Shown here: piece after piece, positions 4,473 to 32,492 of the stretch | Position numbering within the stretch: position 1 is the first letter of the stretch | Layout: the number at the start of each line of letters is the position of its first letter | Virus genome (UHGV): UHGV-0198113 | From: a virus | Length of the DNA stretch: 39,138 nt | Strand: one strand, 5' to 3' | Program-made: the position numbers and the translations under genes | Notes under the pieces: model-generated | The model's database searches: none | Seen by the model: the letters and a program-made list of their open reading frames with translations, nothing else | What the model was told of the DNA's origin: nothing

Positions 4473-4504
4473 CGTAAAGACTCCTACTTTTAAATAAAAT
4501 GGAT

Positions 4505-4530
4505 ACCCCTCCCTTTTTACAGGGAGGGGT
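4505..4530 (-). terminator. stem-loop (10-bp stem ACCCCTCCCT/AGGGAGGGGT) between two minus-strand giant genes; terminator or attenuator
   Basis: Perfect inverted repeat with 6-nt loop; T-rich tract follows on the minus strand (complement of 4480-4504). Confidence 0.4.
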
Positions 4531-4567
4531 TACCTACGGACACATTACTGCCCGCAGGCAGTCTGTC

Positions 4568-7500: not shown

Positions 7501-8758
7501 TTCCTTTACCGGTTTTCAGTTTAGCGACGCCTTTTTCAGTCAGAGTCGCTTTTTGAGGGTCGATAACCCCTACGATAGGGTCAGCGCGTGAACCTTTACC
7601 CGTAAAGCTAATTCCGTTGCGACCCTCGATATACACTTTAGTGTCATCAGGGTCATTACCACCTGTCCCTTCGTCAGGGTCTTGTTGGTATTCCATTAGT
7701 GCAGTCGTTGTAAGCAACGGGTTGCCGTTTAAGGTGAGTTTATTCATCCCTAAGGCATCGCCTGTTGATTCAATACGCAACGTGTTCTTACCTGCACGCC
7801 ACTGTATGTAACGACCCGCACCTGTTCCTTCCAAGTGCCCGACCGCCAACACAACTGAACCGTTTGACTTCAACGTAAAACCATCGTTCGCAAAAATGAT
7901 TTCAGATTCACCATTTTTAGAACTGAATTGTGCACGGTTTCCTGACACCGTACAGTTGAAATTCCCATAGACCTCATCAGAAATCCAATGAGAAATATAG
8001 GTGTCAACTACCGATTGTGGTAAACGGAATGCTTTTAGTTCTTCCGTTAACGCTTTCAGACGTAAACCGTAAGCCATAAAGGTATCCGGCGTTTTGAGAT
8101 TCACCGGATGAGCTTCGATTTGTGCTACGGTTGTTTCATGAGGATTCTTTGCCGCGATATGTGCTGGGTAATTAAATGCTTGAATTTCTTTACCCAGAGC
8201 AACAACGAGTGCTTTAACCTCGGCCAGTTTATCTTTAATCAGTTGGTTTGCATCATCGGTTTTTAATTCGATATCATGAACCGCAGACGCAAGATATTTT
8301 TTATTCAGCAAATCTGCCCAAGACGTTGCAGCAGGTGTTGCTGGATAAAGCGACGGACGACCTTCTAATAACAACCAATCCGCACTAGTCGGGTTATTGA
8401 GATGTTTTACAAGCTCATCCAGAATTTCTACAAACGGATCGTAAAACGTTCCACCGAGCATTTGTCCTTCAAAAGTAACTAAACCTTTGATGGATGGGTT
8501 GATAAGGTGTACCCCACAATACACGTTGGCTGCTACCGAGTCATCCAGTTCCGTCAGCTGATATTGCAGTTCGTAATCTACCCCACGGCTCAGTGGGGTA
8601 GTTGAACCCGGCTGCTTAACGACCAGATTTTCAAAGAACGGGCGATGATCCAAAATCACCACCCGATCGTTGTTGTTTTCTGACCCGATGATACGCTCCT
8701 CTAAGAAGTGATTCTCGGCTTTCGTCCCCCGAGGATCGTAAGGATACGCTTTCATCAA
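4568..8758 (-). CDS. giant structural protein (1396 aa), tail-fibre/tailspike-like
   Basis: Track ORF; AAGGAGA RBS 8 nt upstream inside the end of the preceding gene; N-terminal 'HRPFFENLVVKQPG...GVDYELQY' motif shared with neighbours; Gly/Thr/Asn-rich composition typical of fibres. Confidence 0.8.
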   Translation of the reverse strand: MMKAYPYDPRGTKAENHFLEERIIGSENNNDRVVILDHRPFFENLVVKQPGSTTPLSRGVDYELQYQLTELDDSVAANVYCGVHLINPSIKGLVTFEGQMLGGTFYDPFVEILDELVKHLNNPTSADWLLLEGRPSLYPATPAATSWADLLNKKYLASAVHDIELKTDDANQLIKDKLAEVKALVVALGKEIQAFNYPAHIAAKNPHETTVAQIEAHPVNLKTPDTFMAYGLRLKALTEELKAFRLPQSVVDTYISHWISDEVYGNFNCTVSGNRAQFSSKNGESEIIFANDGFTLKSNGSVVLAVGHLEGTGAGRYIQWRAGKNTLRIESTGDALGMNKLTLNGNPLLTTTALMEYQQDPDEGTGGNDPDDTKVYIEGRNGISFTGKGSRADPIVGVIDPQKATLTEKGVAKLKTGKGTETTGVAATPGSLTPYSTDLSGYVPKTTLLNGKAMNDGSRQITKAELGLEHADNTADVDKPLSSALSTAVEGLAEKNHHHEWSELGIYKASQSIYGIGRYATNQNGLVEGRAVVPNILKELSARLEVVAAAIANAKEGTVTDFAAVQGAQWRFNSQGTALTVQDLKVFYLFDGNKDEATLTGAIDLQTTPMFNWFSPNNQLETTWPEAKVSKGTGITWDGIDEPPLMGYHSVPVGKTATQMGDQSVITVLAKARVKAYQSKLWVYAAGGGPVTVYINGVQVASGESPLLTVYETSPNVENYVVAIKAECSDTAKSAAVQFEIYDGDYPVYFSGPETHVELLADFVTTHVGIRHYLYVNMLTGSLYSRAEPIESNQVDPERGFIGYVDVYAGENYANKTVTFDTTFDFGTSAEIGNHVTTRNAHGLKVVDWSLTDNPRLPLLNRAIPEPRALVYRKMLTAGSGGTAVSLSRGLLTYSHGLNVKTALQLIFSTEGATPYCWFTPFNPKENSAPTFEGSFVFDVDDVGGTKALTAAPDLILCASSQGSSVGRRYVRFNLTDKTCKVGVGTVRTNETWYKTFETNDGVMLMETANETAVSATTKDVLFNGDETNPAILDLLGWGVSKDKISPVHAPRGMIRYRYNVQTRVLRLALSFSQFNTTAVKQRQVEFQLPFDLVDYFAGDGVGLAFSELSEKCRLTISHGLIDPVTSNIDIDKYHYLRGLFESYVDSSIGQLSDARDADYAQTAIDPASYEIKSEFRFTEAIGLPLGQGVASLSHEGQLPAQFYDRKLARGALVSQNSTWNNAWSTTSPASDKHRGNLILRFAQGVSKAHYRIARVSGTIKSNWPGKVIIGDAQKDAFLSATDIVEFALSTSSDVGKAISLTPVDLRAGQDLYIVLELPGDNPEGYELNFSCNLEIFDETNTRQDQLNVQSFEVRSGDEQVMITKRNPYHITSKAWKWILAVLKRELNGKQLGDRT

Positions 8759-8768
8759 AAAATTCTCC

Positions 8769-11700
8769 TTAATCGCGAATAATCACCGCGTTGAGTTTAT
8801 TGTTTTCACCCAAGAACGACATGACACGCTCCTTGTTCAGATAAGGAGGGATCGGTAACGCGTTATAATCGGCTAAATTATCATCAAACTCTTTTGCTAC
8901 CAGCGCGTTTAGCGTCTCAGGATCTGAGCTTGGGCCAGCTGTCTCAATGAGGCGTGCGCGGTTTAATGCAGAATAGTTAGCGATATAATCCAATAGCGTT
9001 CCGTACGATTTATTTGCTGTTATGCTATCAGCAGTGGTACGGAGGTTGGCGCGTACCTCGTCGTCATAAAGTCCCCCTAAACCGTAATAGATAGGGGTAT
9101 AAGGATCGTTAACAATGGGTGAAATATCTAACTCACCTAGACGATCAGTTAACGAAATTTTCTGAGTTGTTCCGCCCGCTGCGGTGCAGCTTACGTATTT
9201 ATCTACATCTGACAAATACACAACGATGGTATAAACCGTTCCTGCTAGTGTTAACGTCGCATTAAACGTCACATCGTTGTTCGCGCCGCGTCTGTGGGTA
9301 AATGTGATATCGGGTTGTAATGTACTCCAAGGGGCAGGTGTAACACGCTTCGTTGGTGTAAAACCAAGAACAACCGATTTCCCATTAGCGAAGTTTAACC
9401 CGAAACCTGCGTAACAATATTCGCCCTTACTGTCAGTTAAGCGGTAGCCCCTTGTCACTAAAAGAGACAAGCGAACAAACTCATTGGCATTATTCCGCCA
9501 ACAACCTAAAATCGTTTCAAGCACTGTGCCCGTTTTTGCGTTACTCTCCGTTTCCCAAGTTACACGAACACCTGCGTTCGAGAACAGCGGGAAAAGATTG
9601 TGAATAAATCCATGAACATTATCACTAACTCCCTTTGGATCAAATATCCACTTCGAAGCTAAGGAATCGTATTTTACGCCGTCGAGTGCTTTATACGTAT
9701 TCCCCATCGCAAATCGCCAATCAGCCTCACCACGTGTTACTGCTTGTAAGCCTGAAGCCCAGCAGGGCGCACCCACTGTTAAATTGCGCAAACCTAGAGC
9801 TGCACGTGGCGCACTTCTCTGAATATGCGCATTGTCGTTAGCAATATGTTCTGACAATTCCCGGAAATCACCTAAACGGGTCACGTTACGCAACTCGGTT
9901 AAGTACACTTCTGAGATATCGTTGACGCCAATCATCCCCACACGGGTCATGGTATCCGTTTCGGCTTGACTGTAACTATCGTGAATAACATAAGTCGCCC
10001 GGTTATCGACAATATCAACAAACACCCCAGCAACAATTTCCGTATTCAGTTTTGGAAAGCGCTCAGCAGTGTTTACTGTCATTAACGGCACTTGATACGT
10101 TTCCCCACCAATGAAATACGTTGTGGCGGGTAACGTAACCAGTATCTTGTCTTTTACCGTAACTTCGATTAAGTCGTTCCCAGTTTCACCGTAACGGATG
10201 ATGTCAATTCGGGCACCCGAATCTACGTTACCTACTGTTGCTTCCAGCTTCTCAATTCGAGCTGTCTGATCCATCACCACACTAGCGTCTAAAGCCAGCG
10301 TTGCATCATCGACGGCTAATCCGAATTTAATTAACCCGCGTTTATCCGTTGTTGCGTTTTCCACTCCAAACGCTGTTGACGGGTGGCGGTGAACCTTCGG
10401 TGAATATTTATCCAACTCTGTTTGTTGTGCAACAGAAATAGGTAAATCGACGTCAGGTGTGTTTGCAACGTTACCTAGGTTAAAGGTGATTTTGTCGATG
10501 GTAATAGAGCTGGTTAACGGCATGTCGTTAATGTACGATTTTACCGCGACCAATTTACCCGTAAACTCAGCATCGAGTTTTGTAATCAACGCAGGCGTCG
10601 CTGCCAGATTTTCCGCAGTACCGAACTCATCGGTTAACTGCCATCCGGCTAAGGACGTCGTATCCGTTGCGGTAGGGAGGACAAACGTTGCCACAAACGG
10701 TGACGCTTTTATTCCGTTACCTGTAATGGTTACCGTTGCTGTCGAGTTTGCGTAGAATAATCCTGTTCCACCCGCGGTATTACCTGGTAGGTAAGGCCCT
10801 ACTGTGGTGGGGTCTAAAAGTTTCTTACCACGCCACTGCAAGCCACGATCGTCAGCGTACAATACCAGCTGATTAGTCCCTGCCTGGAAAGTTACGGGGT
10901 TATTCCCTGCATTAACTTCGGTTGAACCTTGGCCAATAAACTTAATGGATTTCGGGTCAACGGCAAACTGAGCACCTAAACGGGTCTCGTCAACAACATC
11001 CGGCGCTTTCTTAATGGTAACCGTGTTACCTTTGTTTTGCGAGATAATGCTGACACTATCAGCAACGTTGTTAATCAACGTTTTAAAGTGATGTTGGTTC
11101 TCTAACGCTTCTAGCGCAGCATCCATGTTAACGAAGTTGACACGAGCGCTGTACGTCTTACCATTCACGGTAACAACGATATCAAATACGTTCCCCGTAC
11201 GTTTTAATTGGAAACGTAACGTAAAATCATCGTCAGGTATTGCAGGATCGGCGATTTGAGAAACATATTGGACTTCCGGCTGCGGATTAGCATAACCGTT
11301 CAGTTGTAAACCGATACTGACTCGACCTGACAGAACTTCACCGGTAAGTTGAATGAATTTGCCAGAGTTACTACCAGGATTTTCATAGAAGCGTAAACCA
11401 ACCATACCGACTGCTTCATTACCTGACGCTGTTTTACGTCCGGTGACAATGAAGTCAATATCTTGCAGGTTGGCAGGTACTCCATTAAAATAAGTACCAA
11501 ATCCATTCTTCGTTCCCGTATAACGAAGTGCGCCATGATACGTGTAACCATTGCTAACATAGCTTTCGCTAAAATAAGGGTTCACGTACTTAGACATCGA
11601 CACCGGATCAACTTCCGTCGTAAAGGACGTAAAGCCTGGCAGTGTTCTGATAGTTCCGTCAACCGTTTTGTTAGCTGCGGTGCGTAGCAGTTTATTCTGC

Positions 11701-13091
11701 GCTGTCAGTGTTGCCTGCGTCGGGTATTTACTGTTAACGTAATCCGTTAACTGTTGTTTCGTTTTCCCGTAAGCCAAAGCAGCATCTGACGCGATACCGT
11801 TTAACTCTAACGCACGAATCGGTCCCCACGTATCGACGTGTGGGTTATCTTTACGGGTAACGTGCTCGTGAGCTGGTGCGTTGCGGTAAAGCTGTTCCAC
11901 CAACTGATGGTATTTGACAATCAGCTGATAAACGTCATTGCTTACGTCGGCGTCTGGCGCACCAGGTAACGCAAGGAATTGTGCATAATCGTTTTCAGCC
12001 GCCCACCAGTTTAGATTAACGTTGGTTTTATATTTCAACCATTTCGCAACATCTGTTTTGCTATAACCTGCTGAGAATTCGGATGGTGGGTTATCAACGT
12101 TGAACGTGTAGTCCATCGTCTGTTTGTTAGTCGTCACCTCGATAACATACACACCGTTACCAGGCTGACGAACAACACTAAACGTTAACTCACCTTTCAA
12201 TTCGCTGTCGGTCAGTCCGTTGATTAGCGTATAGTCGTAATCGGTTGAGCCGCTTCCTAACGCTACGGTCAGGCGCAAAGAGATTTTACGCTGCTTTAAT
12301 TGAAGACGAAGGATACTTGCACCGCCATTCGCGTAGCACAACATCCAATCGATTTGTTCATTTGGGTTAATGCTTCCCATGTTCGGGAAAATACCAGGAA
12401 TACGGTATTTCATCGACAGGGAGTAGTCATTTAACGTCGTGGTTTTGTACGTAACGGCAAAACGGCGTTTTGTAGTGTTGTACGTATAACCGCCTTTGTT
12501 ATCGTACGTTGCATACTGTTCTGACGTGATAACCGTGCCGTTAGCACGATGCTCAATATCTAACGTGTTACGTGCAATCGGGTCTAACCGATTTACAACG
12601 TTACCTAAGGAGTCGCCTAAGCCTGCGATGGCTTGCATTAACTCCAGTTCACCTTTCCAGTTTTCCCAATCGAACTGAATGTCAACGGGTGGAAAGTAAA
12701 CGTCCCCGATAACGGTGTCCCATTGACACGTAGACGGGTATTTATCTTTATTTAACTCACGCTCTGCGCTAATCTGCTGCTGTGTGGCTTCACCACAACC
12801 AACGGCATGATAATCCACAGTAAAATTCGACTTGTATTTGTCGTTAACAATCCAAATCATCCCGTGAATGAGATAGGCTGTGCGCAACATACCTGTCTCG
12901 TACGGGTGTGTAATTACGTAATCGTCGCCTAAGGTCAGTGTTTTGCCGCCGCTCTTGACCACCAGGGACGTGGTGAAAAAAGGGGCGTGGGCAGGTACCA
13001 ACATTCGGTACTTCGTACCAATGACGGCGACCGCTTCACCGGTTATTTTATTCCCCGGTTCTTTGAAGTGTGGGTCTAGGACGACAGCCAT
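8769..13091 (-). CDS. giant structural protein (1440 aa), tail-fibre/tailspike-like
   Basis: Track ORF; AGGAG RBS; N-terminal 'HAPFFTTSLVVKSGG...GDDYVITH' motif; stops 10 nt before the next gene starts (operon). Confidence 0.8.
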   Translation of the reverse strand: MAVVLDPHFKEPGNKITGEAVAVIGTKYRMLVPAHAPFFTTSLVVKSGGKTLTLGDDYVITHPYETGMLRTAYLIHGMIWIVNDKYKSNFTVDYHAVGCGEATQQQISAERELNKDKYPSTCQWDTVIGDVYFPPVDIQFDWENWKGELELMQAIAGLGDSLGNVVNRLDPIARNTLDIEHRANGTVITSEQYATYDNKGGYTYNTTKRRFAVTYKTTTLNDYSLSMKYRIPGIFPNMGSINPNEQIDWMLCYANGGASILRLQLKQRKISLRLTVALGSGSTDYDYTLINGLTDSELKGELTFSVVRQPGNGVYVIEVTTNKQTMDYTFNVDNPPSEFSAGYSKTDVAKWLKYKTNVNLNWWAAENDYAQFLALPGAPDADVSNDVYQLIVKYHQLVEQLYRNAPAHEHVTRKDNPHVDTWGPIRALELNGIASDAALAYGKTKQQLTDYVNSKYPTQATLTAQNKLLRTAANKTVDGTIRTLPGFTSFTTEVDPVSMSKYVNPYFSESYVSNGYTYHGALRYTGTKNGFGTYFNGVPANLQDIDFIVTGRKTASGNEAVGMVGLRFYENPGSNSGKFIQLTGEVLSGRVSIGLQLNGYANPQPEVQYVSQIADPAIPDDDFTLRFQLKRTGNVFDIVVTVNGKTYSARVNFVNMDAALEALENQHHFKTLINNVADSVSIISQNKGNTVTIKKAPDVVDETRLGAQFAVDPKSIKFIGQGSTEVNAGNNPVTFQAGTNQLVLYADDRGLQWRGKKLLDPTTVGPYLPGNTAGGTGLFYANSTATVTITGNGIKASPFVATFVLPTATDTTSLAGWQLTDEFGTAENLAATPALITKLDAEFTGKLVAVKSYINDMPLTSSITIDKITFNLGNVANTPDVDLPISVAQQTELDKYSPKVHRHPSTAFGVENATTDKRGLIKFGLAVDDATLALDASVVMDQTARIEKLEATVGNVDSGARIDIIRYGETGNDLIEVTVKDKILVTLPATTYFIGGETYQVPLMTVNTAERFPKLNTEIVAGVFVDIVDNRATYVIHDSYSQAETDTMTRVGMIGVNDISEVYLTELRNVTRLGDFRELSEHIANDNAHIQRSAPRAALGLRNLTVGAPCWASGLQAVTRGEADWRFAMGNTYKALDGVKYDSLASKWIFDPKGVSDNVHGFIHNLFPLFSNAGVRVTWETESNAKTGTVLETILGCWRNNANEFVRLSLLVTRGYRLTDSKGEYCYAGFGLNFANGKSVVLGFTPTKRVTPAPWSTLQPDITFTHRRGANNDVTFNATLTLAGTVYTIVVYLSDVDKYVSCTAAGGTTQKISLTDRLGELDISPIVNDPYTPIYYGLGGLYDDEVRANLRTTADSITANKSYGTLLDYIANYSALNRARLIETAGPSSDPETLNALVAKEFDDNLADYNALPIPPYLNKERVMSFLGENNKLNAVIIRD

Positions 13092-13158: not shown

Positions 13159-14421
13159 GTGACTACTGCTTATCAAGTGCGGCCCGACAGCGCTTTTGGC
13201 TTCTCTCGAGAGTCCCGTACCTGGGGAGCCATCGATGTCACGCAACCTTTAGCTACACTGTGTTCGGATTACCACACCTTTGAGGTCGGCCTGAGTGCGC
13301 TTGGTAAAGACTATACGTTAGTCAGCCAGTATCACCTTGCTGAATTACAAAACCGAACCGATACTTTACAAGACTGGTTGAATGAAAAAGCCGGTGTGGT
13401 TATTCCTACCTTAAAAGCAGGATTACCGAAACTGGAATTCAGCTGGGCGCATTACCAATCGATTAACGCAGACGTACCCGTTGAGTCTTACCTGTGCCCT
13501 GCGGGTTATCATTACAGTCAGGATTTCAGTCTGGATGATGCGACAGATGTGGTGATAGTCTGTGAAGACAAATGGAAAGACAAATACCGTAACGGGGTGC
13601 TATACAACATCAACGGGCAATGGGTGCCGCATCAATCTGATTCTGTTGGTGTACGATTACCTGGTGCTGGGAATATCGTTAGACGTGCAGGTACACCAGA
13701 TATCGGTTGCATGGTTTTTGATGCGCTCGGTGCGGTGAAAACATACCCGATTGCTAATCTTACCTTAAACAAACTCGACACCACGCGCGATTACTATTCA
13801 ACGTTAATGATTTCGTTGCCCGAATCCATAACCGGTAAAACCGTAGGGTTCGTTATTGGTGGGATGTTACGTTGGCTGCCTGCGAACGGTTATTTCTCCG
13901 ATCGTGCGATTATGATTTCTTTACCGAATTTCGATCTTGCGCGCACGGTGTTAGAAACACGGCGTTACTACGATTGGGATGCTATCGGTGTAGGGGATTT
14001 ATCTTCACCTGCTAACGTTCAACGAATTCGCAACCCAGAAACATTAAAAGCGCTCTTACTTCACGAATCTTCGTTTATTTTTACGGTGGATAATCCGTAT
14101 TTAGAAGAAGAGATTGTGGGCGTATCGCATAACGCGATTTGGGGACGTTGTTATCTCAAAGACCCTAACGATCCTGATTCTGAAAAACCGTTAGGCTATT
14201 TAAATAACCGATTCGGAAAGACGGTAGGTTATTGGCCTACGTGGGAAGAAGGTGAGTGGGTATTTAACACCACCGAGTTCGACAGTCAAAACTACGTATT
14301 TCGTGAAGCTCGCTGGTATAACCAGAAGAAGATTAACGATGCGCAAGCGATAGTCGGGCCCTTCGGCCCCTGGGAAAAAGTGTATTTAGAAATGCATCGT
14401 TTTCGTGCACGAAAAAAATAA
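13159..14421 (+). CDS. hypothetical protein (420 aa), GTG start
   Basis: Track ORF; GAGGA RBS upstream of GTG; followed by a strong terminator. No motif recognised. Confidence 0.6.
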   Translation: MTTAYQVRPDSAFGFSRESRTWGAIDVTQPLATLCSDYHTFEVGLSALGKDYTLVSQYHLAELQNRTDTLQDWLNEKAGVVIPTLKAGLPKLEFSWAHYQSINADVPVESYLCPAGYHYSQDFSLDDATDVVIVCEDKWKDKYRNGVLYNINGQWVPHQSDSVGVRLPGAGNIVRRAGTPDIGCMVFDALGAVKTYPIANLTLNKLDTTRDYYSTLMISLPESITGKTVGFVIGGMLRWLPANGYFSDRAIMISLPNFDLARTVLETRRYYDWDAIGVGDLSSPANVQRIRNPETLKALLLHESSFIFTVDNPYLEEEIVGVSHNAIWGRCYLKDPNDPDSEKPLGYLNNRFGKTVGYWPTWEEGEWVFNTTEFDSQNYVFREARWYNQKKINDAQAIVGPFGPWEKVYLEMHRFRARKK

Positions 14422-24290: not shown

Positions 24291-24320
24291 ACACCACACT
24301 CCGTGATTATGGAGGTGGGT

Positions 24321-26825
24321 ATGCTAAAAGTTGAACGTATTGTACTCAAAGGTTTTACGGGGATGGGATTGCACGAAATTGAAACGTTCGATTTCACTAT
24401 CCAGTCACCGACAACGATTATCCTGGGTGGGAACGGTTGTGGGAAGACCAGTTTACTGTCCGTATTTTTGCCCTTAGCTCCGGCTAAAACAGAATTCAGG
24501 GATGGGGGTTCTTACACGAATTATTGTTTAGTCGGCGATCAACGTTACCGTTTCAAAGTTGCCCGTAAAGGCAACTCGTTGGTTTGCGATATTGAGAATC
24601 TCACTACGGGAACGAAGATTGTCGAGCAAGGTAACGCAAAGGTTTACAATTCACGCGTTGAAGAAATCACTGGTATTACGAAAGAAATTAAAGAATTGTT
24701 AAACGGTGAGGTGTTGTTAACGGACGCGGGAACGGAATTACGTCGTAAATGGTTTTACCGTTTAAGTACCTCTGACCTTACTTACGCGCTAGGGTTCTAT
24801 CAGAGATTGCGGAAAAACCTCACCGTCTTAAACGGTGGCATTGAAATTACCAGTCGTAAGATCGCAGAGTTACGAACACGTGTTATTGAAAATGAAGAAG
24901 AACGTCAACAGTTAGCGGTAAGATTAAAAGGCTTGGAATCGGATTTACGCGAACTGAACCGACAAATCGAACAGCTACCGGGTTTAAATCGTGGCGTTAC
25001 TATCGAATCAATCCAGGCGTTATTAAACGGCTTAGGTCCAACTATCGACGCAATATTACAACATCGTGGTGGTTTGCCTACCGACGAACAGATACTGAAC
25101 GCACGACACAATGAAGCCACAGCACGCGAAGCTGTCGTTTCAGCAGAAACGGAAGTATCAATGTTGAATAAAGATCTGTCGTTATTGATGGACGAGTCAA
25201 CGCGACAGGATTACCTGATGCGCAATCACGAGGGTCTCAAGAACACTCTCGCACGTTTACGTGAAGTGCTTACCAAATGGGACACCGAGCATCTCTTTCC
25301 TGGACTGTTTAGTGAGAGTGCGAATTTAGACCAGCTACGTGCTGCAACCGATGCACGCGTTTGGGGCCAACGACTGGGAACAACACTGGACGCCATTCAT
25401 TCAACCGAAAAGCTCAACGTTTTGGAAGAACGTCTACTGGTGATGGATCAGAAGACCGCAGGATTGCGAGATAGACTCCAGCGCGTAGAGAATGTTTTAC
25501 AAAACTTGAACCACGAACGAAATCACTATCTGGAAACAGCAGAAGTAGATTGCCCGCAATGTCGGTTTAAATTTCGACCTGGGGTTACGCGTTCTTTGTC
25601 TGAACTTGAAACCTCGATTAGAGGCCAACAGCAACAACGTACGGAGCTTCAAACACAGTTAGACAGTATATTACGCGATCGTGTCGAACTGGAATCTGAT
25701 GTAACGTATATGCGTCAGGTTCGTGAAATCGTGTTGACGTACTCAAAGGACCCGGTTTTAAGCATGTTCTTTAAGTGTCTACAAGAACGTAATGTCTTTA
25801 CAGAATCACGCGAACAGTTCGGAAGTCTCTGCGCGGCTTTTGACAGTGAGCTGTATTCTGCTATTGAATATCATGAAACCCGTCAACGGTTAGTGAAGGC
25901 AGAAAAAGAATGGCAAGATGCGGTAGCTGCTGTGGGTAACGTCGATGGTGCTTTACAACAGAAAATTGCTTTCCAACAATCGCGTTTAGGTAAAGCCACA
26001 GAAACGCTCTCAGTGCGTCGTAGAGAGCACGAGTTAGCTAATACGACACTTACCTATCTAGAGAGCGTTAAACGTGCTATAGACGATTTTAGCGCGTTAT
26101 TCGAACGGTTAGAGAATGACGTTAAGGTTACTTTGACAAACACAGTTGTCGAAGAACTCTTACGGGCACGAGAAGGGAAACTGGATGCGTTTACGACAGC
26201 ACGTGAGCGTTATCGTCAAATGGAAAGTGAACTGAATCAGCTCAATACGTTGGAACGCGAACTTGCGGATTTACAAGCCCAGCAGTTTAATAACAAATTG
26301 ATGATTCAGGCGTTCTCGCCAGAAAAAGGTGTACTCAGAAAGTATTTTTACAATGCTATCGTCAGAATCACAGAGTTAATGACGCGCTATATCGAACAAG
26401 TCTGGACGTACCCCATGCGAGTTATGCCTTGTGATCTCACCGACGGTGATTTGGATTATACTTTTCCTGTCCAACTAAAAACACATCCTGAACCCGTTCC
26501 TGATGTGCGTAAAGGGTCTAAGGCACAACGTGCTATATTCAATCTGATGTTCAGACTGACTGCGTATAAAGCGTTGAAATTACATCAGTTTCCTTTGCTA
26601 TTGGATGAACCCTCAGAGGGTATGGACGAAGAACACCGTAATAACCTGGTTGGTTTTATTAAAACGTTAGCAAACTCAGGGGAGTTCTCGCAGTTACTGG
26701 TGGTCTCCCACGAAGCTGAAGTCCATTCTAAACTTAACGAAGCATCGTACTGTGTCATTGAACCGGAAGGGGTGACATTACCTGCGGTGTATAACGAGGG
26801 AGTAAAAATTGTTTATGCAAACTGA
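24321..26825 (+). CDS. Rad50/SbcC-like SMC-family ATPase with coiled coil and CxxC zinc hook (~834 aa)
   Basis: Track ORF 24303-26825 trimmed to the ATG 5 nt after GGAGG. Walker A 'GGNGCGKTSLL'; mid-protein 'CPQC' hook within predicted coiled coil; C-terminal Walker B/D-loop 'LLLDEPSEGMDEE' and 'LLVVSHE'. Confidence 0.8.
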   Translation: MLKVERIVLKGFTGMGLHEIETFDFTIQSPTTIILGGNGCGKTSLLSVFLPLAPAKTEFRDGGSYTNYCLVGDQRYRFKVARKGNSLVCDIENLTTGTKIVEQGNAKVYNSRVEEITGITKEIKELLNGEVLLTDAGTELRRKWFYRLSTSDLTYALGFYQRLRKNLTVLNGGIEITSRKIAELRTRVIENEEERQQLAVRLKGLESDLRELNRQIEQLPGLNRGVTIESIQALLNGLGPTIDAILQHRGGLPTDEQILNARHNEATAREAVVSAETEVSMLNKDLSLLMDESTRQDYLMRNHEGLKNTLARLREVLTKWDTEHLFPGLFSESANLDQLRAATDARVWGQRLGTTLDAIHSTEKLNVLEERLLVMDQKTAGLRDRLQRVENVLQNLNHERNHYLETAEVDCPQCRFKFRPGVTRSLSELETSIRGQQQQRTELQTQLDSILRDRVELESDVTYMRQVREIVLTYSKDPVLSMFFKCLQERNVFTESREQFGSLCAAFDSELYSAIEYHETRQRLVKAEKEWQDAVAAVGNVDGALQQKIAFQQSRLGKATETLSVRRREHELANTTLTYLESVKRAIDDFSALFERLENDVKVTLTNTVVEELLRAREGKLDAFTTARERYRQMESELNQLNTLERELADLQAQQFNNKLMIQAFSPEKGVLRKYFYNAIVRITELMTRYIEQVWTYPMRVMPCDLTDGDLDYTFPVQLKTHPEPVPDVRKGSKAQRAIFNLMFRLTAYKALKLHQFPLLLDEPSEGMDEEHRNNLVGFIKTLANSGEFSQLLVVSHEAEVHSKLNEASYCVIEPEGVTLPAVYNEGVKIVYAN

Positions 26826-26994
26826 TTGGTTCCGTCGTTCGATGAGCGCGGCGGGATTTGGCTTTATGGTCATTTTGGCAATACTTTACGTCATGTTTTG
26901 CGTGGTAATGATTTTATGGGTAGTTTCATCGTATTCGATTAAACTATTCTGGGGTTCGATTTGGCGTCAACGCGAATGCGAGTGGCGGAATTAG
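26815..26994 (+). CDS. small hydrophobic membrane peptide (~59 aa)
   Basis: Track ORF 26809-26994 trimmed to first ATG; TM segment 'FGFMVILAILYVMFCVVMILWVV'; overlaps the end of the ATPase gene (possible coupling); weak RBS. Confidence 0.4.
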   Translation: MQTDWFRRSMSAAGFGFMVILAILYVMFCVVMILWVVSSYSIKLFWGSIWRQRECEWRN

Positions 26995-27005
26995 GAGAGG
27001 GAATT

Positions 27006-27116
27006 ATGATTGAAGGGGTTCTGCTAACGCTAGGTGCGTTGTGGTTGATCGGTAAAGGTTTAAACTGGTTAATTAAACGACACGGCTGGGCGTTCGAAGG
27101 TTCGACATTCAAATAA
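27006..27116 (+). CDS. small membrane peptide (36 aa)
   Basis: Not in track (under 60 aa). AGGAGAGGG RBS 6 nt upstream; 'MIEGVLLTLGALWLIGKGLNWLIKRHGWAFEGSTFK'; followed by hairpin GTACCCTC/GAGGGTAC. Confidence 0.4.
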   Translation: MIEGVLLTLGALWLIGKGLNWLIKRHGWAFEGSTFK

Positions 27117-27163
27117 TCCAGAACGTACCCTCTGTAAGGAGGGTACTAACAGGAACAGAAAAG

Positions 27164-27292
27164 ATGACCTCGATAAATACTACGAATGCGGCGATCTCTG
27201 CATTATACGATGCGGAGCTTACATGGGGCGGGATGCTAATTACCGCCGCCATATTAGCCGCCGCAGCATTCGTCATTGCGCGTTGGTTTTAA
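27164..27292 (+). CDS. small membrane peptide (42 aa)
   Basis: Not in track. 'MTSINTTNAAISALYDAELTWGGMLITAAILAAAAFVIARWF' has a C-terminal TM helix; weak RBS; followed by a T-rich tract. Confidence 0.35.
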   Translation: MTSINTTNAAISALYDAELTWGGMLITAAILAAAAFVIARWF

Positions 27293-27325
27293 CTTTTTAC
27301 TTTTTTGCGTCTCTAAGGTTTGCAA

Positions 27326-27769
27326 ATGGAAATTTATTTATTGAACGCATCCTCTAAAGTCGGTGAGCAACAAGCAAGTGACTTACTTAAATTACACTAC
27401 CGTTACTTAGACCACCAAGCTACGTTACTAAAAATCAAAATGGCCGTGCCGAAGTTAAATGCACGGCAGCTGATCGAGGGTAACTGCGTAGTTCTGGTGT
27501 ATCTGGACGGTGTGGCAGTAGGTTATTGCAGTTACCGGAATCGTAATGGTTCCCTCAAGATACGTTCACTGTATGTGTTGCCGGATTATCGACAGCGTGG
27601 CGTAATGAAAGAGATTTTTAAAGCAATCGCAGCCGATGAAGCTTTCAGCGAGATCGTTGTTGGCATGTATGCGAAGTGCAAAGAAGCAAAAGAATATTTC
27701 ATCCGACGCGGTTATCAAGCGGTTTACTCACGCGATCGTGAGTGGGTCGATTTTAGCAAATCATTCTAA
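27326..27769 (+). CDS. GNAT-family N-acetyltransferase (~147 aa)
   Basis: Track ORF 27320-27769 trimmed to ATG; motif A-like 'VLPDYRQRGVMKEIF' (Q/R-x-x-G-x-G/A). Confidence 0.7.
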   Translation: MEIYLLNASSKVGEQQASDLLKLHYRYLDHQATLLKIKMAVPKLNARQLIEGNCVVLVYLDGVAVGYCSYRNRNGSLKIRSLYVLPDYRQRGVMKEIFKAIAADEAFSEIVVGMYAKCKEAKEYFIRRGYQAVYSRDREWVDFSKSF

Positions 27770-27835
27770 AATAATAAAAGCTCTCTTGGCGTTCCTCACT
27801 ATGAGTGTGAGAAATTTACGTCAGGAGAGCTATTT

Positions 27836-28081
27836 ATGTTAAAATCGTACGGAGTGGGTGGTTTGGATACGAGTATTTGTTGGAAAGAATACGAACGCGC
27901 CAAAGCGTTCTTACAACATCCCAACGTAGGAACAATCGGTAAGGTTTGTTTTGGTAAACCTTCACTGACAGCTTCTATCCAAGGGGCTTTAGGAACGTTG
28001 CCACCCGAAACACATTTCGAGCCTGAGGAGAATATGAATGTTCACAGAGAATCCGTCAGTTTACGGTCTACCACTGGATGA
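27836..28081 (+). CDS. hypothetical protein (81 aa)
   Basis: Track ORF; AGGAGAG RBS 6 nt upstream. Confidence 0.55.
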   Translation: MLKSYGVGGLDTSICWKEYERAKAFLQHPNVGTIGKVCFGKPSLTASIQGALGTLPPETHFEPEENMNVHRESVSLRSTTG

Positions 28082-28406
28082 GTTTGACATTCTACAAATT
28101 TGTTATCAATGCGGCGATTTTGGTAACACACAAGTCACACGTTTAGTTAAGATGTTGGGCTACTTACCTGAAATCGAACTACCTTTTGTTAAACCCAGCT
28201 TAGTTCGTCGTGCATCATGTCGTGAAGCTTATCTGCTTTGGAAGCACAATATTGCTGTAGAGAAAGTCTGGGACCGCATGAACGATCATCAGTTCCGTGA
28301 ACAGGTTGTTCATACACTCAACTTAGCGTTGGCTATGCAACGCCTGGGTCTACAGCACGAAGGTTTAGAAACGGCAGTCAAACAGTGGATTAAGAAAAAT
28401 CAATGA
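28038..28406 (+). CDS. hypothetical protein (122 aa)
   Basis: Track ORF; GAGGAG RBS 8 nt upstream; start lies within the 3' end of the previous ORF in another frame. Confidence 0.6.
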   Translation: MFTENPSVYGLPLDEFDILQICYQCGDFGNTQVTRLVKMLGYLPEIELPFVKPSLVRRASCREAYLLWKHNIAVEKVWDRMNDHQFREQVVHTLNLALAMQRLGLQHEGLETAVKQWIKKNQ

Positions 28407-28493
28407 TGGGTAAAACATATATCGCCATACTCGTTGAGTTGTCGATCGGTGGTACACGTTTTAACACCGTCCATCAACTTCGAGTGAATCGTT

Positions 28494-28991
28494 ATGCTAA
28501 CGATACGTAAAGAATCTGAGATCGGCGGCGACCTTTTTAATGCACCTGAAGCTTATAAGGTCGTTACCATTAACTGCGTGGGCGCAATGGGTCGCGGTAT
28601 TGCTTTAGCCTGTCGAGAACGCTACCCTACGCTTTATCAGGATTATCGTAAACGTTGTCGCGAAAACGAAATCAGGATTGGAAATGTCTACGTTTATCCT
28701 GACGAAAAGTGTATCCTGCTCCCCACAAAAACACACTGGCGTCTAAAGTCCCAAGTTTCTTATGTTACTGCGGGTATTACCGCATTAGCAGATTGTGTTG
28801 AAAACCTGGACACCTCTGTTGCTATCCCTCCACTGGGAATGGCCAATGGTTGGTTACGTCCTTGGGAAAGACAAGAAATCTTTTTGTGGCTTTACGACAA
28901 ACTTGAAACAAGGAGACAACATCACACGTTATATCTACCCGATGCATTGTACCAAGAAGCTCGGTCTTTAATTCCAAACTCTTTTAAATAG
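28494..28991 (+). CDS. macrodomain protein, TARG1/OARD1/DarG-like (165 aa)
   Basis: Track ORF; 'GDLFNAPEAYKVVTINCVGAMGRGIALACRERYP' matches the TARG1-type macrodomain N-terminal signature (GDLF...H/NC...MGAGIA) as I recall it; downstream 'PTKTHW' and 'PPLGMANGWL' align with the Lys and G-x-G-x-D regions. Confidence 0.7.
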   Translation: MLTIRKESEIGGDLFNAPEAYKVVTINCVGAMGRGIALACRERYPTLYQDYRKRCRENEIRIGNVYVYPDEKCILLPTKTHWRLKSQVSYVTAGITALADCVENLDTSVAIPPLGMANGWLRPWERQEIFLWLYDKLETRRQHHTLYLPDALYQEARSLIPNSFK

Positions 28992-29091
28992 ATATTATCA
29001 TTAGGGCACACAACAAAGGAGTATTAGCTGTCCGCGCCGTCATTTCGTCTTACGGAATACGGAAATGTATAAATCCAACTGGAGAAGCAAA

Positions 29092-29790
29092 ATGTTTCGT
29101 ATCTTCTTTCTTTTACTGGTAACACTTTTCGCGTTTAACGCACAGGCGTCAACGTCAACGCCACAATCTAAGCATCATCGTGAGTTTGCACAAATCCAAC
29201 ATCGATTCGAAAAGGTCAGTCCTTTAATTGTGGAAATCTCCCGAAAGCAAGGCGTTGATCCTAAATTGATGGTTACGCTGATTTACCGTGAATCGCGTTT
29301 TGATCCTAAAGCTTACAATAAAAGCTCAAGAGCACACAGCCTGGTACAGATGGTTCCGAGTACCAAACGTAATTTGCTAAAGCTTTACGGAAAAGAATTA
29401 GGTCTTAGTCAGAACGCCGATTTGTACAATCCGCGTAATGCTGTTTTGCTGGCTGCCGCGTATATTAAGCATCTTGAAAAGGGGTTAACTAAACGACTCA
29501 AACGCAAGCCCACCATGGCTGAAGTTGCGTTAGCTTACCACTGGGGTGAAAGTGGTGCACACGCACGAATCAAAAGCAAATCTCGAGCAGCACAACGAGA
29601 AATGGCAGGGTTTATGAAAGACGCAGCATTTTACAGTGCGAAAATCGATGTACCTGCTGCTGTGGGCTCGGCTCCACGTCAGCTTGCGTTTGCGAAGAAG
29701 TCACCACGTCAGATTCAATTGGCGGAAGTCAGTAGAATTTGGGATACGATAAACACGAGTTTTCCAATCAATAGAGGAGTTGCCCTTTGA
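29092..29790 (+). CDS. exported lytic transglycosylase (SLT domain) with Sec signal peptide
   Basis: Track ORF 29065-29790; start moved to the ATG with GGAG RBS at -7 (29065 is an alternative). Signal 'MFRIFFLLLVTLFAFNAQA'; SLT signature 'RESRFDPKAYNKSSRAHSLVQMVPST' (catalytic E-S, Q-M/LMQ-type motif). Confidence 0.75.
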   Translation: MFRIFFLLLVTLFAFNAQASTSTPQSKHHREFAQIQHRFEKVSPLIVEISRKQGVDPKLMVTLIYRESRFDPKAYNKSSRAHSLVQMVPSTKRNLLKLYGKELGLSQNADLYNPRNAVLLAAAYIKHLEKGLTKRLKRKPTMAEVALAYHWGESGAHARIKSKSRAAQREMAGFMKDAAFYSAKIDVPAAVGSAPRQLAFAKKSPRQIQLAEVSRIWDTINTSFPINRGVAL

Positions 29791-30296
29791 GCATCGTTGT
29801 AACCGATTGGTATAAAGGCATTACAAAAGCCGCACAACTAACCGCGAAAGACGTTTACGCTATCGTCCGAAGCAGTATCGAAGACGAGATTAAATCGGAT
29901 GAAGATTTCGCTGAGAAGCACGAATTTTACGATGCTTTGCCTACTGCCTTCGGCGATGATCCCGAGAATGAGCAAGAGTTTGATTGGAACGTAAACTTAG
30001 CACTGCTCTGGATTTGTGGTCTACGGCCAACGGTAAAAGAAACCGAAGAAGGTAAAGTGTTGCTCTGGAACTATACGGGTCAGTATAACCGTGGGTTGGT
30101 CTTTAAGCAAGCGTATATGGATGCTACTGTAGAACTTCAGAATCTGTTACTTGGCGAAAACACCTACTGCCAACGTAGCTTCTTAACGATTCTGGAAAAA
30201 CTCGTAGCAACACACAAAGTCTGGCGTAAAACTGACGCCCCTGAACACATGTTCATTCTGGAATACGCGGTTATTCCAAACCAACCGTTCTTCTAA
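29787..30296 (+). CDS. hypothetical protein (169 aa), TTG start
   Basis: Track ORF; AGAGGAG RBS 9 nt upstream of TTG; overlaps the previous stop by 4 nt; start codon uncertain. Confidence 0.55.
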   Translation: MSIVVTDWYKGITKAAQLTAKDVYAIVRSSIEDEIKSDEDFAEKHEFYDALPTAFGDDPENEQEFDWNVNLALLWICGLRPTVKETEEGKVLLWNYTGQYNRGLVFKQAYMDATVELQNLLLGENTYCQRSFLTILEKLVATHKVWRKTDAPEHMFILEYAVIPNQPFF

Positions 30297-30300
30297 TCCC

Positions 30301-30340
30301 TACCCCTACTCTTAACGGAGTAGGGGTACTTTTATTTTCA
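30301..30340 (+). terminator. rho-independent terminator
   Basis: 11-bp perfect stem TACCCCTACTC/GAGTAGGGGTA, 6-nt loop, followed by CTTTTATTTTCATTT. Confidence 0.8.
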
Positions 30341-30360
30341 TTTCCTAAAGGAGCAAAAGC

Positions 30361-30840
30361 ATGATAAAATTTATTTGGCGTTATCCAACACGTTTTTGGT
30401 TTGTGGTACTTGAGTTGTTTATGATTCTTGCGGCGGTTACTTTCGTTAATGCGCCTGCTTCGCAGTTAACTATATTCTGTTTATTCGTAGCAATCCCTGT
30501 ATGGGTTATCGCAAAGATTATTAAGTTCTTCATGATTAGTTGGGCGAATTATACGTGCCCGTATAAACCTAAAGAAATCATGAACTGGTTAATGTACATT
30601 GAAGATCGCTTACCAGCGCAGCATAAAAGCCTGGGCTGGGAGTCGATGTTAGATATTGCGTTAGAAACTAATGCGAAATTCCCCGGTTCGAAGAATCCGT
30701 ATTTGTTACTGGCGGTTATTGTTGCGCAACAGAAACGTGCAGGCGATCGATGGTTGCCGGAAGAAGCAAAAGAGTATATCCGTAAACACCCAAAAGCTTT
30801 CTATTCAATAGGACAATGGCGTAATCTGCCACTATTTTAA
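30361..30840 (+). CDS. membrane protein with two N-terminal TM helices (159 aa); holin-like candidate
   Basis: Track ORF; AAGGAG RBS; TM segments 'FWFVVLELFMILAAVTFV' and 'LTIFCLFVAIPVWVIAKIIKFF'. Confidence 0.7.
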   Translation: MIKFIWRYPTRFWFVVLELFMILAAVTFVNAPASQLTIFCLFVAIPVWVIAKIIKFFMISWANYTCPYKPKEIMNWLMYIEDRLPAQHKSLGWESMLDIALETNAKFPGSKNPYLLLAVIVAQQKRAGDRWLPEEAKEYIRKHPKAFYSIGQWRNLPLF

Positions 30841-30893
30841 CTTTTTACAGAACCCTTAGTTGATTTGAATAAACCTAAAAGAGGACTATTAAA

Positions 30894-31829
30894 ATGACTT
30901 TTCCATCTGAAGTAATCTACGAACTGGCTAACACTCTGCGTCGTCACTATAATGGACATATGCTGCAATCCTGCATAGGTGAAACTGCTGACTTCCTGCG
31001 TGGCCATCTCCTGGGTAACAACCCGTCTTCGATTACACAGGAGACGGTTTTCCATATTGATCGTGCCACCAAAATTCTTCCAATTAGCGACGCCGTCGCA
31101 GTTCAAGAGGGCTATACATTCAACTTCTCTATGGGGATGCGTCATTCCTCTATTGCTATTAATCCCGTCTCGGGAAATGAACCGTCCTTCATGCTCAATC
31201 CGTTTCCTGCGAAGCACGGTAACTGGTTCGTTGTGGTAGAACAAGGCGTGAATCAGTACGAGGTTGTTGCGGCTCGCGACGAGTCGTTCTTTGACTTAGG
31301 GCAGATTTCTCGCCGCCAAGAAATTGCTCTTGACCTTCGTCAGGGCAATATCGGATTAAGTGGAAGCGTGGTCTATTTCATTCTGAGCAGTTGGGCACAT
31401 GTAAGTTATATCCTGAGTAAAGCTGATGTAACGTTCCACCCAATAGAGGTAGATTACCGCGCCGCGAAGAATGACGATCATGACGAAGAAGAACCGGTAC
31501 CTGGTGCAGAAGTTGCGGTTTGTGAAGACTACGACGATCTAAAATCCGTGTTTGTTAAACGTGACATCTTCGAATCTCTTAACCTGGATTTCCCTGGTGA
31601 CGAGAAAGAAATATCTGTCGCAGACCTGGTAGAAGCCCTGTGCCAGAAAGACCAGTCTAATGAAATCAGTGATGAAGAAGCTGAACTCTTCCAGGTTCAA
31701 CAACTTATCAGTAAAGTTATAGGTGGTCAAGAAATCGCCGACACCCTTATGGCTCTACCGCCGAAGAAACGTACGCAGAAATATATCCGCGAACTGGTTC
31801 TTAAAGCGCTAGGTCAAAAAGCAAAATAA
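30894..31829 (+). CDS. hypothetical protein (311 aa), acidic C-terminal half
   Basis: Track ORF; AGAGGA RBS. No motif recognised. Confidence 0.7.
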   Translation: MTFPSEVIYELANTLRRHYNGHMLQSCIGETADFLRGHLLGNNPSSITQETVFHIDRATKILPISDAVAVQEGYTFNFSMGMRHSSIAINPVSGNEPSFMLNPFPAKHGNWFVVVEQGVNQYEVVAARDESFFDLGQISRRQEIALDLRQGNIGLSGSVVYFILSSWAHVSYILSKADVTFHPIEVDYRAAKNDDHDEEEPVPGAEVAVCEDYDDLKSVFVKRDIFESLNLDFPGDEKEISVADLVEALCQKDQSNEISDEEAELFQVQQLISKVIGGQEIADTLMALPPKKRTQKYIRELVLKALGQKAK

Positions 31830-31832
31830 AAG

Positions 31833-31870
31833 TTACCCTACTCCTTCGGGAGTAGGGTAATTCTTTTTTT
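31833..31870. terminator. bidirectional rho-independent terminator with C(UUCG)G tetraloop
   Basis: 12-bp stem TTACCCTACTCC/GGAGTAGGGTAA, TTCG loop, T8 on plus and T-rich on minus; between convergent genes. Confidence 0.85.
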
Positions 31871-32492
31871 AGTTAACTAACCCGTTAGCTTTAAGAATCT
31901 CTAACATTTGGTTGTTTAACTCTTTTAATTTTTTGTTTTCTTCCGTTAATGCAGTCACCTGTTCACCTAATGGAATCGATTCACGAATTTTATTCTTTCG
32001 TGCCGCTTCCATCTGTAGGTGTTGTTCTTCCGTCACTTTCCCTTCATACTCGAGCGTCGTGACCTCAACTTTCGGATCAATCCCCAGTGTGTGGGTAAGT
32101 ATATCCGAAACGTCTTTGGTCATCGCCGACACATTCACGTAGTCTGGTACAAGCGCCAGATCAATCACCATCACGTTCCGCTGATACGTAATCCCAGACA
32201 GACCAGGATATGACTCCAGGTAAGTGTCGGGTATATACGCAACCTGTCCGTCGCGAGACTTAAACGTCAGAATGGATGCACTGACATTCGCATCTGCTAA
32301 ATATTCTTCACGACTCAGGCCGACTGGCTGGTAATACTCGTTATAAACGTCAATATTCTGACGTACTAAATCTGGGAAGGTACGTGACGCTTCTACTGTA
32401 TAAATGACCGTTTCGGATAAAGTAAAAGGTGTCTTTACTTTAAAAAGCCCTGTAGTGTTAACAGGGACCTGTAGTGGTAAGCGCGTGGCCAT
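31869..32492 (-). CDS. hypothetical protein (207 aa), C-terminal coiled-coil-like segment
   Basis: Track ORF; immediately downstream (3-nt gap) of the 457-aa gene on the minus strand. Confidence 0.7.
   Translation of the reverse strand: MATRLPLQVPVNTTGLFKVKTPFTLSETVIYTVEASRTFPDLVRQNIDVYNEYYQPVGLSREEYLADANVSASILTFKSRDGQVAYIPDTYLESYPGLSGITYQRNVMVIDLALVPDYVNVSAMTKDVSDILTHTLGIDPKVEVTTLEYEGKVTEEQHLQMEAARKNKIRESIPLGEQVTALTEENKKLKELNNQMLEILKANGLVN

Follow-up and report, generated by a model that had tools for sequence, protein, structure and literature searches.

The 39,138-nt viral genome fragment UHGV-0198113, referred to here at its full length as the window, carries on its plus strand a short gene whose product had been read from the DNA sequence alone, in a first-pass annotation, as a macrodomain of the TARG1/DarG type. 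The locus raises the question of what such an enzyme does for a phage, and against which ADP-ribose mark it is directed. Our analysis indicates that the gene most likely encodes an orphan antitoxin of the AdfM (anti-DarT factor macro) type, a phage-borne equivalent of the macrodomain half of DarG2 that reverses the ADP-ribosylation that host DarT2 carries out on phage DNA. This reading draws on the fold, family, active-site conservation, orphan status, purifying selection, and orthology and synteny with gp217 of Erwinia phage Asesino observed here. The gene lies as follows:

28494 to 28991, plus strand: adfM-like gene, encoding a stand-alone DarG-type macrodomain; ATG start, 165 amino acids, the whole protein being the macrodomain

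An exact ATG-initiated open reading frame (ORF) was found at the position first annotated, and the motifs quoted for it were all present: GDLF at residues 12-15, INCVGAMGRGIA at residues 26-37, and GMANG at residues 115-119. A full HMMER scan of a 1.84-billion-protein library returned 5205 cluster representatives at E<=0.001, of which 1918 remained at E<=1e-10. Homologues of the gene were detected by tblastn in 260 phage records, and identical or near-identical proteins are encoded on 22 metagenomic contigs. Comparison with a 75%-identical relative (locus L008) gave a ratio of nonsynonymous to synonymous substitution rates (dN/dS) of ~0.10, with synonymous sites near saturation. The ORF is a real gene, far beyond chance, and is under strong purifying selection.

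The family of the protein was determined by sequence, profile and structure comparison, with the family profile and the AlphaFold2 model both being built from one alignment of 27 family members (A1). The Pfam family PF01661 (Macro) matched residues 25-116 with E=5.8e-06 and 26.7 bits, above its gathering score of 22, and the PADLOC DarG model matched with E=9.4e-37 (125 bits) over positions 6-151 of its 329 positions, which correspond to the macrodomain half. A single-sequence phmmer search of the PDB sequences returned DarG of Mycobacterium tuberculosis (Mtb; 5m3i, 4.9e-25), DarG of Thermus aquaticus (Taq; 5m31/5m3e, 2e-21) and the Thermosipho africanus DarTG fusion (7omu, 2.4e-11), and TARG1 was not detected in this search. 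With the family profile the same three proteins gave E-values of 5.8e-46 (Mtb DarG), 3.2e-41 (Taq DarG) and 5.5e-28 (T. africanus DarTG), against 1.2e-07 for TARG1 and 1e-06 or weaker for alphavirus, Poa1p-type and other macrodomains.

The AlphaFold2 model (predicted local distance difference test score, pLDDT, 94.3; predicted template-modelling score, pTM, 0.90) indicates a three-layer alpha/beta/alpha macro fold. Foldseek placed it closest in the PDB to Taq DarG with bound ADP-ribose (5m3e; template-modelling (TM) scores 0.80/0.86, root-mean-square deviation 1.7 A, 157 aligned columns), followed by the other Taq DarG entry and Mtb DarG, then Thermosipho DarTG, and then TARG1 (TM ~0.70). There were 195 PDB matches at E<=0.001, and the best 50 of these 195 were macrodomains or designed enzymes of similar fold. 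Sequence, profile and predicted fold agree in assigning the protein to the DarG (DarTG2 antitoxin) type, with TARG1 and all other classes of macrodomain far behind; the macrodomain call of the first-pass annotation was borne out by the structure prediction that it had proposed, and its TARG1/DarG clade could be narrowed to DarG. The C-terminal ~40 residues were also considered as an extra domain or import tag. This was rejected, as these residues are part of the macro fold: the matches to the DarG model and by Foldseek both run to about residue 155, and the strand and helix at residues 144-159 are those with which a macro fold normally ends.

The protein is an orphan in two respects. Pfam and PADLOC scans of the 38 substantial ORFs of the window revealed no DarT, no other ADP-ribosyltransferase (ART) and no NADAR gene, and the remaining PADLOC matches (LmuB, AriA and similar models) all traced to the SbcC/SMC-like ATPase gene at 24303 to 26825. 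The C-terminal DarT-binding domain of DarG is also absent, the 165 residues being matched only by the first half of the DarG model, whereas full-length relatives such as P0078 cover positions 1-320 of that model.

If the protein is a DarG-type hydrolase, the residues which hold and cleave the substrate in DarG should be recognisable in it. The sites concerned are:

28572 to 28574, plus strand: codon of N27, equivalent to Taq DarG N22 and PhiKZ AdfM N23, predicted to position the ADP-ribosyl-thymidine
28581 to 28598, plus strand: first glycine-rich ADP-ribose-binding loop, G30-A-M-G-R-G35, followed by I-A and not by a MacroD-type G-[VLI]-D
28725 to 28742, plus strand: T78-K79-T-H81-W82-R motif, with K79 the predicted catalytic lysine
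28827 to 28853, plus strand: second, substrate-clamping loop, P112-P-L-G-M-A-N-G-W120, a clade variant of the DarG GCGNGG

In the alignment with Taq DarG, N22, K80, H82 and W83 are all retained, as N27, K79, H81 and W82, and K29 is conservatively replaced by R34. In Taq DarG, activity is abolished by K80A, which is followed in strength of effect by N22A; K29E and G119E inhibit, and H82A and W83A have little effect, W83 being proposed to stack on the thymine (PMC5179494). K79 also aligns with K78 of PhiKZ AdfM and K84 of TARG1, and is held in the sequence PTKTHW, which matches the P-T-K-x-x-W motif of DarG. Across the 27-member family alignment G30, M32, G33, G35, T78, K79, P112, P113, L114, G115 and G119 are invariant and N27 is conserved in at least 90% of members, while the position of W82 is occupied by phenylalanine in some relatives. 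In the second loop, Taq DarG G119, N120, G121 and G122 correspond to A117, N118, G119 and W120, so that relative to the DarG pattern G-x-G-N-G-G the asparagine and the glycine after it are kept, and alanine and tryptophan replace the first and last of these four residues.

It had been proposed from the sequence that the residue aligned with the catalytic aspartate of TARG1 is the asparagine of GMANG, and that the chemistry may therefore differ. There is indeed no aspartate at the site, but D125 of TARG1 aligns opposite G119, with N118 beside it (the TARG1 sequence used was checked and is identical to the PDB chains). The asparagine is the DarG consensus and not a departure from it: the commonest second loop among DarG-like proteins of ~330-390 residues is GCGNGG, and that of PhiKZ AdfM is GCANGG, with an alanine as at A117. 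The suggestion of altered chemistry was misleading, as cellular DarG has this same asparagine and the shared catalytic lysine is kept as K79.

TARG1 is mainly a protein Glu-ADP-ribose hydrolase, and is also able to act on ADP-ribosylated DNA. The protein could accordingly have another target, such as Glu/Asp-linked mono-ADP-ribose on proteins, RNA ADP-ribosylated by toxin ARTs, or marks set by an ART of the phage itself. Human TARG1/OARD1 (4j5q/4j5r/4j5s) lies in the same macrodomain branch, shares the catalytic lysine (K84, equivalent to K79), and is the next-best structural class (TM 0.70; profile 1.2e-07); furthermore, some distant homologs are found in genes annotated as ADP-ribosyltransferase in Streptomyces and Arthrobacter phages, and the clade-specific loop with W120 could alter substrate choice. 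However, the DarG match is ~38 orders of magnitude better than that to TARG1, identity to TARG1 is ~18-21%, and the equivalent of D125 is absent, leaving the TARG1 catalytic pair K84+D125 incomplete. W82, at the position proposed to stack on thymine, is retained, no ART gene was found among the 38 ORFs of the window, and the Asesino ortholog is located in the DNA-containing phage nucleus. We therefore consider a target other than DarT2-modified DNA to be quite unlikely.

The MacroD type of macrodomain has its catalytic aspartate in a G-G-[VLI]-D sequence after the first glycine loop. In the window protein this region reads G33-R-G-I-A37, without the aspartate, and MacroD, viral and Poa1p-type macrodomains matched at E>=1e-06, which is 20-40 orders of magnitude weaker than DarG. 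Both observations bear on whether the protein is a housekeeping ADP-ribose-1''-phosphate phosphatase or O-acetyl-ADP-ribose deacetylase, as might be supposed from the label 'phosphatase' of PHROG 335 and the 'Appr-1-p processing' annotation of GenBank relatives. A yeast-type ADP-ribose 1''-phosphate phosphatase (6lft) was in fact matched weakly and in part, with E=0.022 by single sequence and E=1.2e-06 by the family profile over residues 8-58 only. These labels, however, are inherited generic macrodomain names and not tested functions, and there are homologs with a demonstrated DNA substrate and defence phenotype, making a housekeeping role highly unlikely.

These homologs are the AdfM proteins, which were described experimentally in 2025-2026 and to which the window protein adds one more ordinary member. 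A DarG2-like macrodomain is present in about half of chimalliviruses and was named AdfM by Morgan et al. (Cell Rep 2026, PMC13309987), whose alignment includes PhiKZ gp104, PhiPA3 gp108, Goslar gp83 and Asesino gp217. PhiKZ AdfM strips ADP-ribose from a DarT2-modified TNTC oligonucleotide, an activity impaired by N23A, and rescues E. coli from DarT2 toxicity (PMC13309987). Deletion of adfM lowers the titres of PhiKZ and PhiPA3 by several logs on DarTG2 hosts, with more ADP-ribosylated DNA in the infected cells and a block of replication and packaging (PMC13309987). When fused to green fluorescent protein, AdfM of Asesino, of PhiKZ and of PhiPA3 was in each case located in the phage nucleus (PMC13309987). 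In phage T4 the tk.4 macrodomain gene, also named adfM, is conditionally essential on DarTG2 hosts (HIDEN-SEQ preprint, bioRxiv 10.1101/2025.11.20.689424). DarTG2 consists of the thymidine-specific DarT2 and a macrodomain antitoxin, whereas DarTG1 pairs the guanine-specific DarT1 with a NADAR antitoxin (PMC11543638), and the macrodomain of Taq DarG suffices by itself as an antitoxin (Jankevicius et al. 2016, PMC5179494). The removal of DarT-type marks as a counter-defence, put forward in the first-pass annotation, has thus been demonstrated for PhiKZ gp104, PhiPA3 gp108 and the distant T4 Tk.4 (PMC13309987; 10.1101/2025.11.20.689424).

The same annotation had offered, as an alternative, the processing of ADP-ribose-derived signalling products, and no support was found for it. 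Macrodomains do bind ADP-ribose derivatives, and a protein of this kind could in principle degrade or sequester immune signals such as those of the Thoeris glycocyclic ADP-ribose (gcADPR) type. No homolog is known to do so, however, the active-site residues are of the glycohydrolase type for base-linked ADP-ribose, and the Asesino ortholog is concentrated in the nucleus, whereas such signals act in the cytoplasm; of the explanations considered this one is the least credible.

Among the named AdfM proteins, the window protein is closest to that of Asesino. The two show 61% identity over 164 residues in a gapless alignment and occupy the same genomic position, and on these grounds the window protein appears to be the syntenic ortholog of Asesino gp217. 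Identity with PhiKZ gp104 is ~38% (37% by tblastn), with the catalytic asparagine and lysine conserved; both are stand-alone DarG2-like macrodomains of ~160 residues from phiKZ-like jumbo phages. They differ in the second loop, which is GMANGW in the window protein, as in other enterobacterial members, and GCANGG in PhiKZ, and in an insertion of ~9 residues before the PPLG loop of PhiKZ that is absent from the window protein. The PADLOC DarG model scored 125 bits for the window protein, 133 for PhiKZ AdfM, 115 for Asesino gp217 and 36 for T4 Tk.4. Compared with the DarG2 antitoxins themselves (Taq 5m31/5m3e, Mtb 5m3i), which match it best in sequence, in profile and in fold, the protein lacks the C-terminal DarT-binding domain and an adjacent darT, and is borne by a phage and not by a bacterial toxin-antitoxin operon.

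T4 Tk.4 resembles the window protein in being a stand-alone phage macrodomain that matches the DarG model and is needed on DarTG2 hosts. As a close relative it was rejected, since BLASTP gave 22 bits (E=0.002) over 43 residues and identity in the alignment was ~19%; T4 Tk.4 is a remote homolog of analogous function, and looks from its sequence like an independent or very old acquisition. In a neighbour-joining tree, which was without support values and was used for clustering only and not for the direction of transfer, the window protein grouped with those of Asesino and Salmonella phage SPN3US in a clade with tryptophan in the second loop, inside the DarG radiation near the PhiKZ and Totoro AdfM proteins, and both T4 Tk.4 and TARG1 fell outside the cluster of DarG and chimallivirus proteins. 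Other phage anti-DarT factors are known, namely AdfN (the NADAR protein 30.3 of T4) and AdfA/AdfB (PMC11825919, PMC11481870). They follow the same logic, with an orphan antitoxin-like or inhibitory protein neutralising a DarT toxin, but their folds are unrelated to that of AdfM; AdfN is a NADAR protein acting on the guanine-linked ADP-ribose made by DarT1, and AdfB likely binds DarT directly.

In order to place the phage itself, positions 27300-30300 were compared by megablast with 50,697 phage records. There was no match at the DNA level, which sets the phage apart from those with a named AdfM; the phage is known by its proteins only, and tblastn was used instead. The best protein-level matches to the adfM-like product came from the SPN3US group of Salmonella phages (62-63%) and the Asesino and Machina groups of Erwinia phages (58-61%), and many phiKZ-like jumbo phages, including PhiKZ with gp104, ranked next. 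Its close relatives all belonged to Seoulvirus, Erskinevirus, Machinavirus and other genera of the Chimalliviridae, which are nucleus-forming jumbo phages. The structural proteins encoded in the window share 77-81% identity with those of SPN3US and phiEaH2, and a common gene order (SMC/SbcC-like ATPase, small genes, GNAT acetyltransferase, small genes, macrodomain, SLT transglycosylase) was found in the window, Asesino and SPN3US. The window is probably part of an uncultured SPN3US/Asesino-like chimallivirus, a lytic jumbo phage. Divergence from SPN3US is uneven, protein identity being 77-81% for structural genes, 62% for AdfM and 40% for the GNAT protein. Proteins 96-98% identical to the adfM-like product were found on contigs of 79 kb and 226 kb in NCBI assemblies of Salmonella enterica isolates, and for this reason the host is probably Salmonella; it also suggests that an unrecognised jumbo phage was carried in those isolate cultures.

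By analogy with its homologs, the window protein would be expected to remove ADP-ribose from DNA, to protect the phage from DarTG2 and to localise to the phage nucleus. Infection would trigger host DarTG2, and DarT2 would place ADP-ribose on single-stranded phage DNA, at the N3 of thymidine within TNTC motifs, and these marks would block replication and packaging of the phage. The enzyme would hold the ADP-ribose between its two glycine-rich loops, and K79, aided by N27 and W82, would hydrolyse the bond between the ribose and thymine N3, restoring normal DNA. Because the DarT-binding C-terminal domain is absent, the macrodomain would act solely by reversing the modification, that is, catalytically on the product, and would not sequester the toxin. 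Like its Asesino ortholog, it probably enters the phage nucleus, the site of its DNA substrate.

Four points weigh against this reading of the protein as an AdfM-type antitoxin. The substrate-clamping loop departs from DarG at A117 and W120, and G119E impairs Taq DarG; an alanine at the G119 position is nevertheless tolerated in PhiKZ AdfM. Catalysis has been demonstrated for PhiKZ AdfM only, and the data for Asesino gp217, the closer relative, are of localisation only (PMC13309987). Nucleus formation and import are deduced from relatedness alone, as genes for chimallin (ChmA) and PicA were not found in the 39,138-nt window. Lastly, we infer both the identity of the host and its carriage of DarTG2.

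The loop itself marks an enterobacterial chimallivirus sub-clade. In 198 sequences collected, the pattern G(M/L)(A/V)NGW occurred 53 times, 49 of them in stand-alone proteins of 151-174 residues. The sub-clade with GM(A/V)NGW comprises the window protein, SPN3US gp196, Asesino gp217 and ~50 cluster representatives, with the Asesino loop reading GMAHGW, in which histidine replaces the asparagine. In this loop the bulky tryptophan sits at the second glycine of the DarG GNGG. A tentative and rather unlikely suggestion is that the variant loop changes or broadens the substrate range, or serves as a surface for nuclear import, with a 35-residue peptide encoded immediately upstream (see below) as a possible partner. 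Candidates for such a range could include the sequence contexts of divergent enterobacterial DarT2 enzymes, guanine-linked ADP-ribose, and double-stranded or packaged DNA.

The AdfM family is hereby extended to an uncultured, probably Salmonella-infecting, lineage of jumbo phages, in which the protein is strongly conserved (dN/dS ~0.1) though neighbouring accessory genes diverge faster. SPN3US-type jumbo phages are candidates for phage therapy and biocontrol, and carriage of AdfM predicts resistance to DarTG2-bearing hosts. A reading made from sequence alone had correctly identified a phage counter-defence enzyme. Scientifically little is added to the papers of 2025-2026; the point of remaining interest is the GM(A/V)NGW variant of the loop, by which the enterobacterial sub-clade is defined.

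The macrodomain gene and its neighbours lie in a block of co-directional plus-strand genes from about 24303 to 31829. The genes which flank it are, in order:

24303 to 26825, plus strand: SMC/SbcC-like ATPase, 840 amino acids; PHROG 77, 'SbcC-like subunit of palindrome specific endonuclease' (E=4e-91), and Pfam SMC_N
27320 to 27769, plus strand: GNAT acetyltransferase, Pfam Acetyltransf_1 (E=2.4e-08), ~0.7 kb upstream of adfM
27836 to 28081, plus strand: small gene, 81 amino acids, matching only PHROGs 28329 and 12626, of unknown function
28038 to 28406, plus strand: small gene, 122 amino acids, matching only PHROG 11720, of unknown function, and overlapping the 81-residue gene by 44 nt
28403 to 28510, plus strand: small conserved gene, 35 amino acids (MMGKTYIAILVELSIGGTRFNTVHQLRVNRYANDT) with the hydrophobic core YIAILVELSIGG; its 3' end overlaps the adfM start
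29065 to 29790, plus strand: SLT-domain transglycosylase, 3' of adfM

The first-pass annotation had described a 35-codon ORF that runs into the start of the macrodomain gene, with a GNAT gene and two small genes of unknown function just upstream, and all of them were located as described. The 35-codon ORF was called in six near-identical contigs. It is also present in the 75%-identical relative L008 (MSKTYIAILVELAIGGTRF...), where it had been missed by the gene caller at positions 2900 to 3010 of that locus. Between the window and L008 the dN/dS is ~0.08 when the ORF is read in its own frame, and exceeds 1 for both of the other frames. This small ORF is a true, conserved gene whose translation is probably coupled to that of adfM; no such ORF was found at that position in Asesino.

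A GNAT gene near the macrodomain gene, as a syntenic ortholog, is a common feature of the SPN3US/Asesino/Machina group, and in Serratia phage Totoro an unrelated GNAT gene directly overlaps the start of the macrodomain gene (locus L010, 2520 to 3011). A functional pairing of the two enzymes was considered, and the proximity of their genes was rejected as evidence for it, since these two GNAT proteins are alike only in fold and PhiKZ has no GNAT gene next to gp104; the proximity may be a coincidence. The set of small genes between the GNAT gene and adfM differs among the window phage, SPN3US and Asesino, which suggests that adfM is surrounded by a variable island of accessory genes.

The ATPase at the start of this block also matches the PADLOC models of the defence ATPases LmuB, AriA and JetC, which probably reflects generic ABC-ATPase similarity. 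No tRNA was found in a scan of the window, and an Rfam scan of it gave no matches. The 420-residue ORF at 13159 to 14421 was considered as the import factor PicA and rejected, as it encodes a conserved virion structural protein.

The beginning of the window is occupied by very large genes on the opposite strand:

within 1 to 13091, minus strand: giant ORF of at least 1509 amino acids, running off the start of the window
4568 to 8758, minus strand: giant gene, 1396 amino acids, PHROG virion structural families
8769 to 13091, minus strand: giant gene, 1440 amino acids, PHROG virion structural families

The first 4.5 kb had been thought to lack a long ORF, which was rejected on finding the minus-strand ORF of at least 1509 residues there. 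The 1396- and 1440-residue proteins match overlapping PHROG virion structural families (8078, 7557, 7449 and 2163), and for this reason were taken to be paralogs. Three consecutive giant genes on the minus strand are in keeping with phiKZ-like phages, which typically have giant virion proteins that are paralogs of one another. Among the 38 ORFs, Pfam matches were also obtained for an RNase H domain (E=7.9e-21), a Rv2179c-like 3'-5' exoribonuclease domain (E=2.9e-11) and DUF7194 (E=1e-71); the last is probably carried by the 207-residue minus-strand ORF at 31869 to 32492, as judged by comparison with locus L003.

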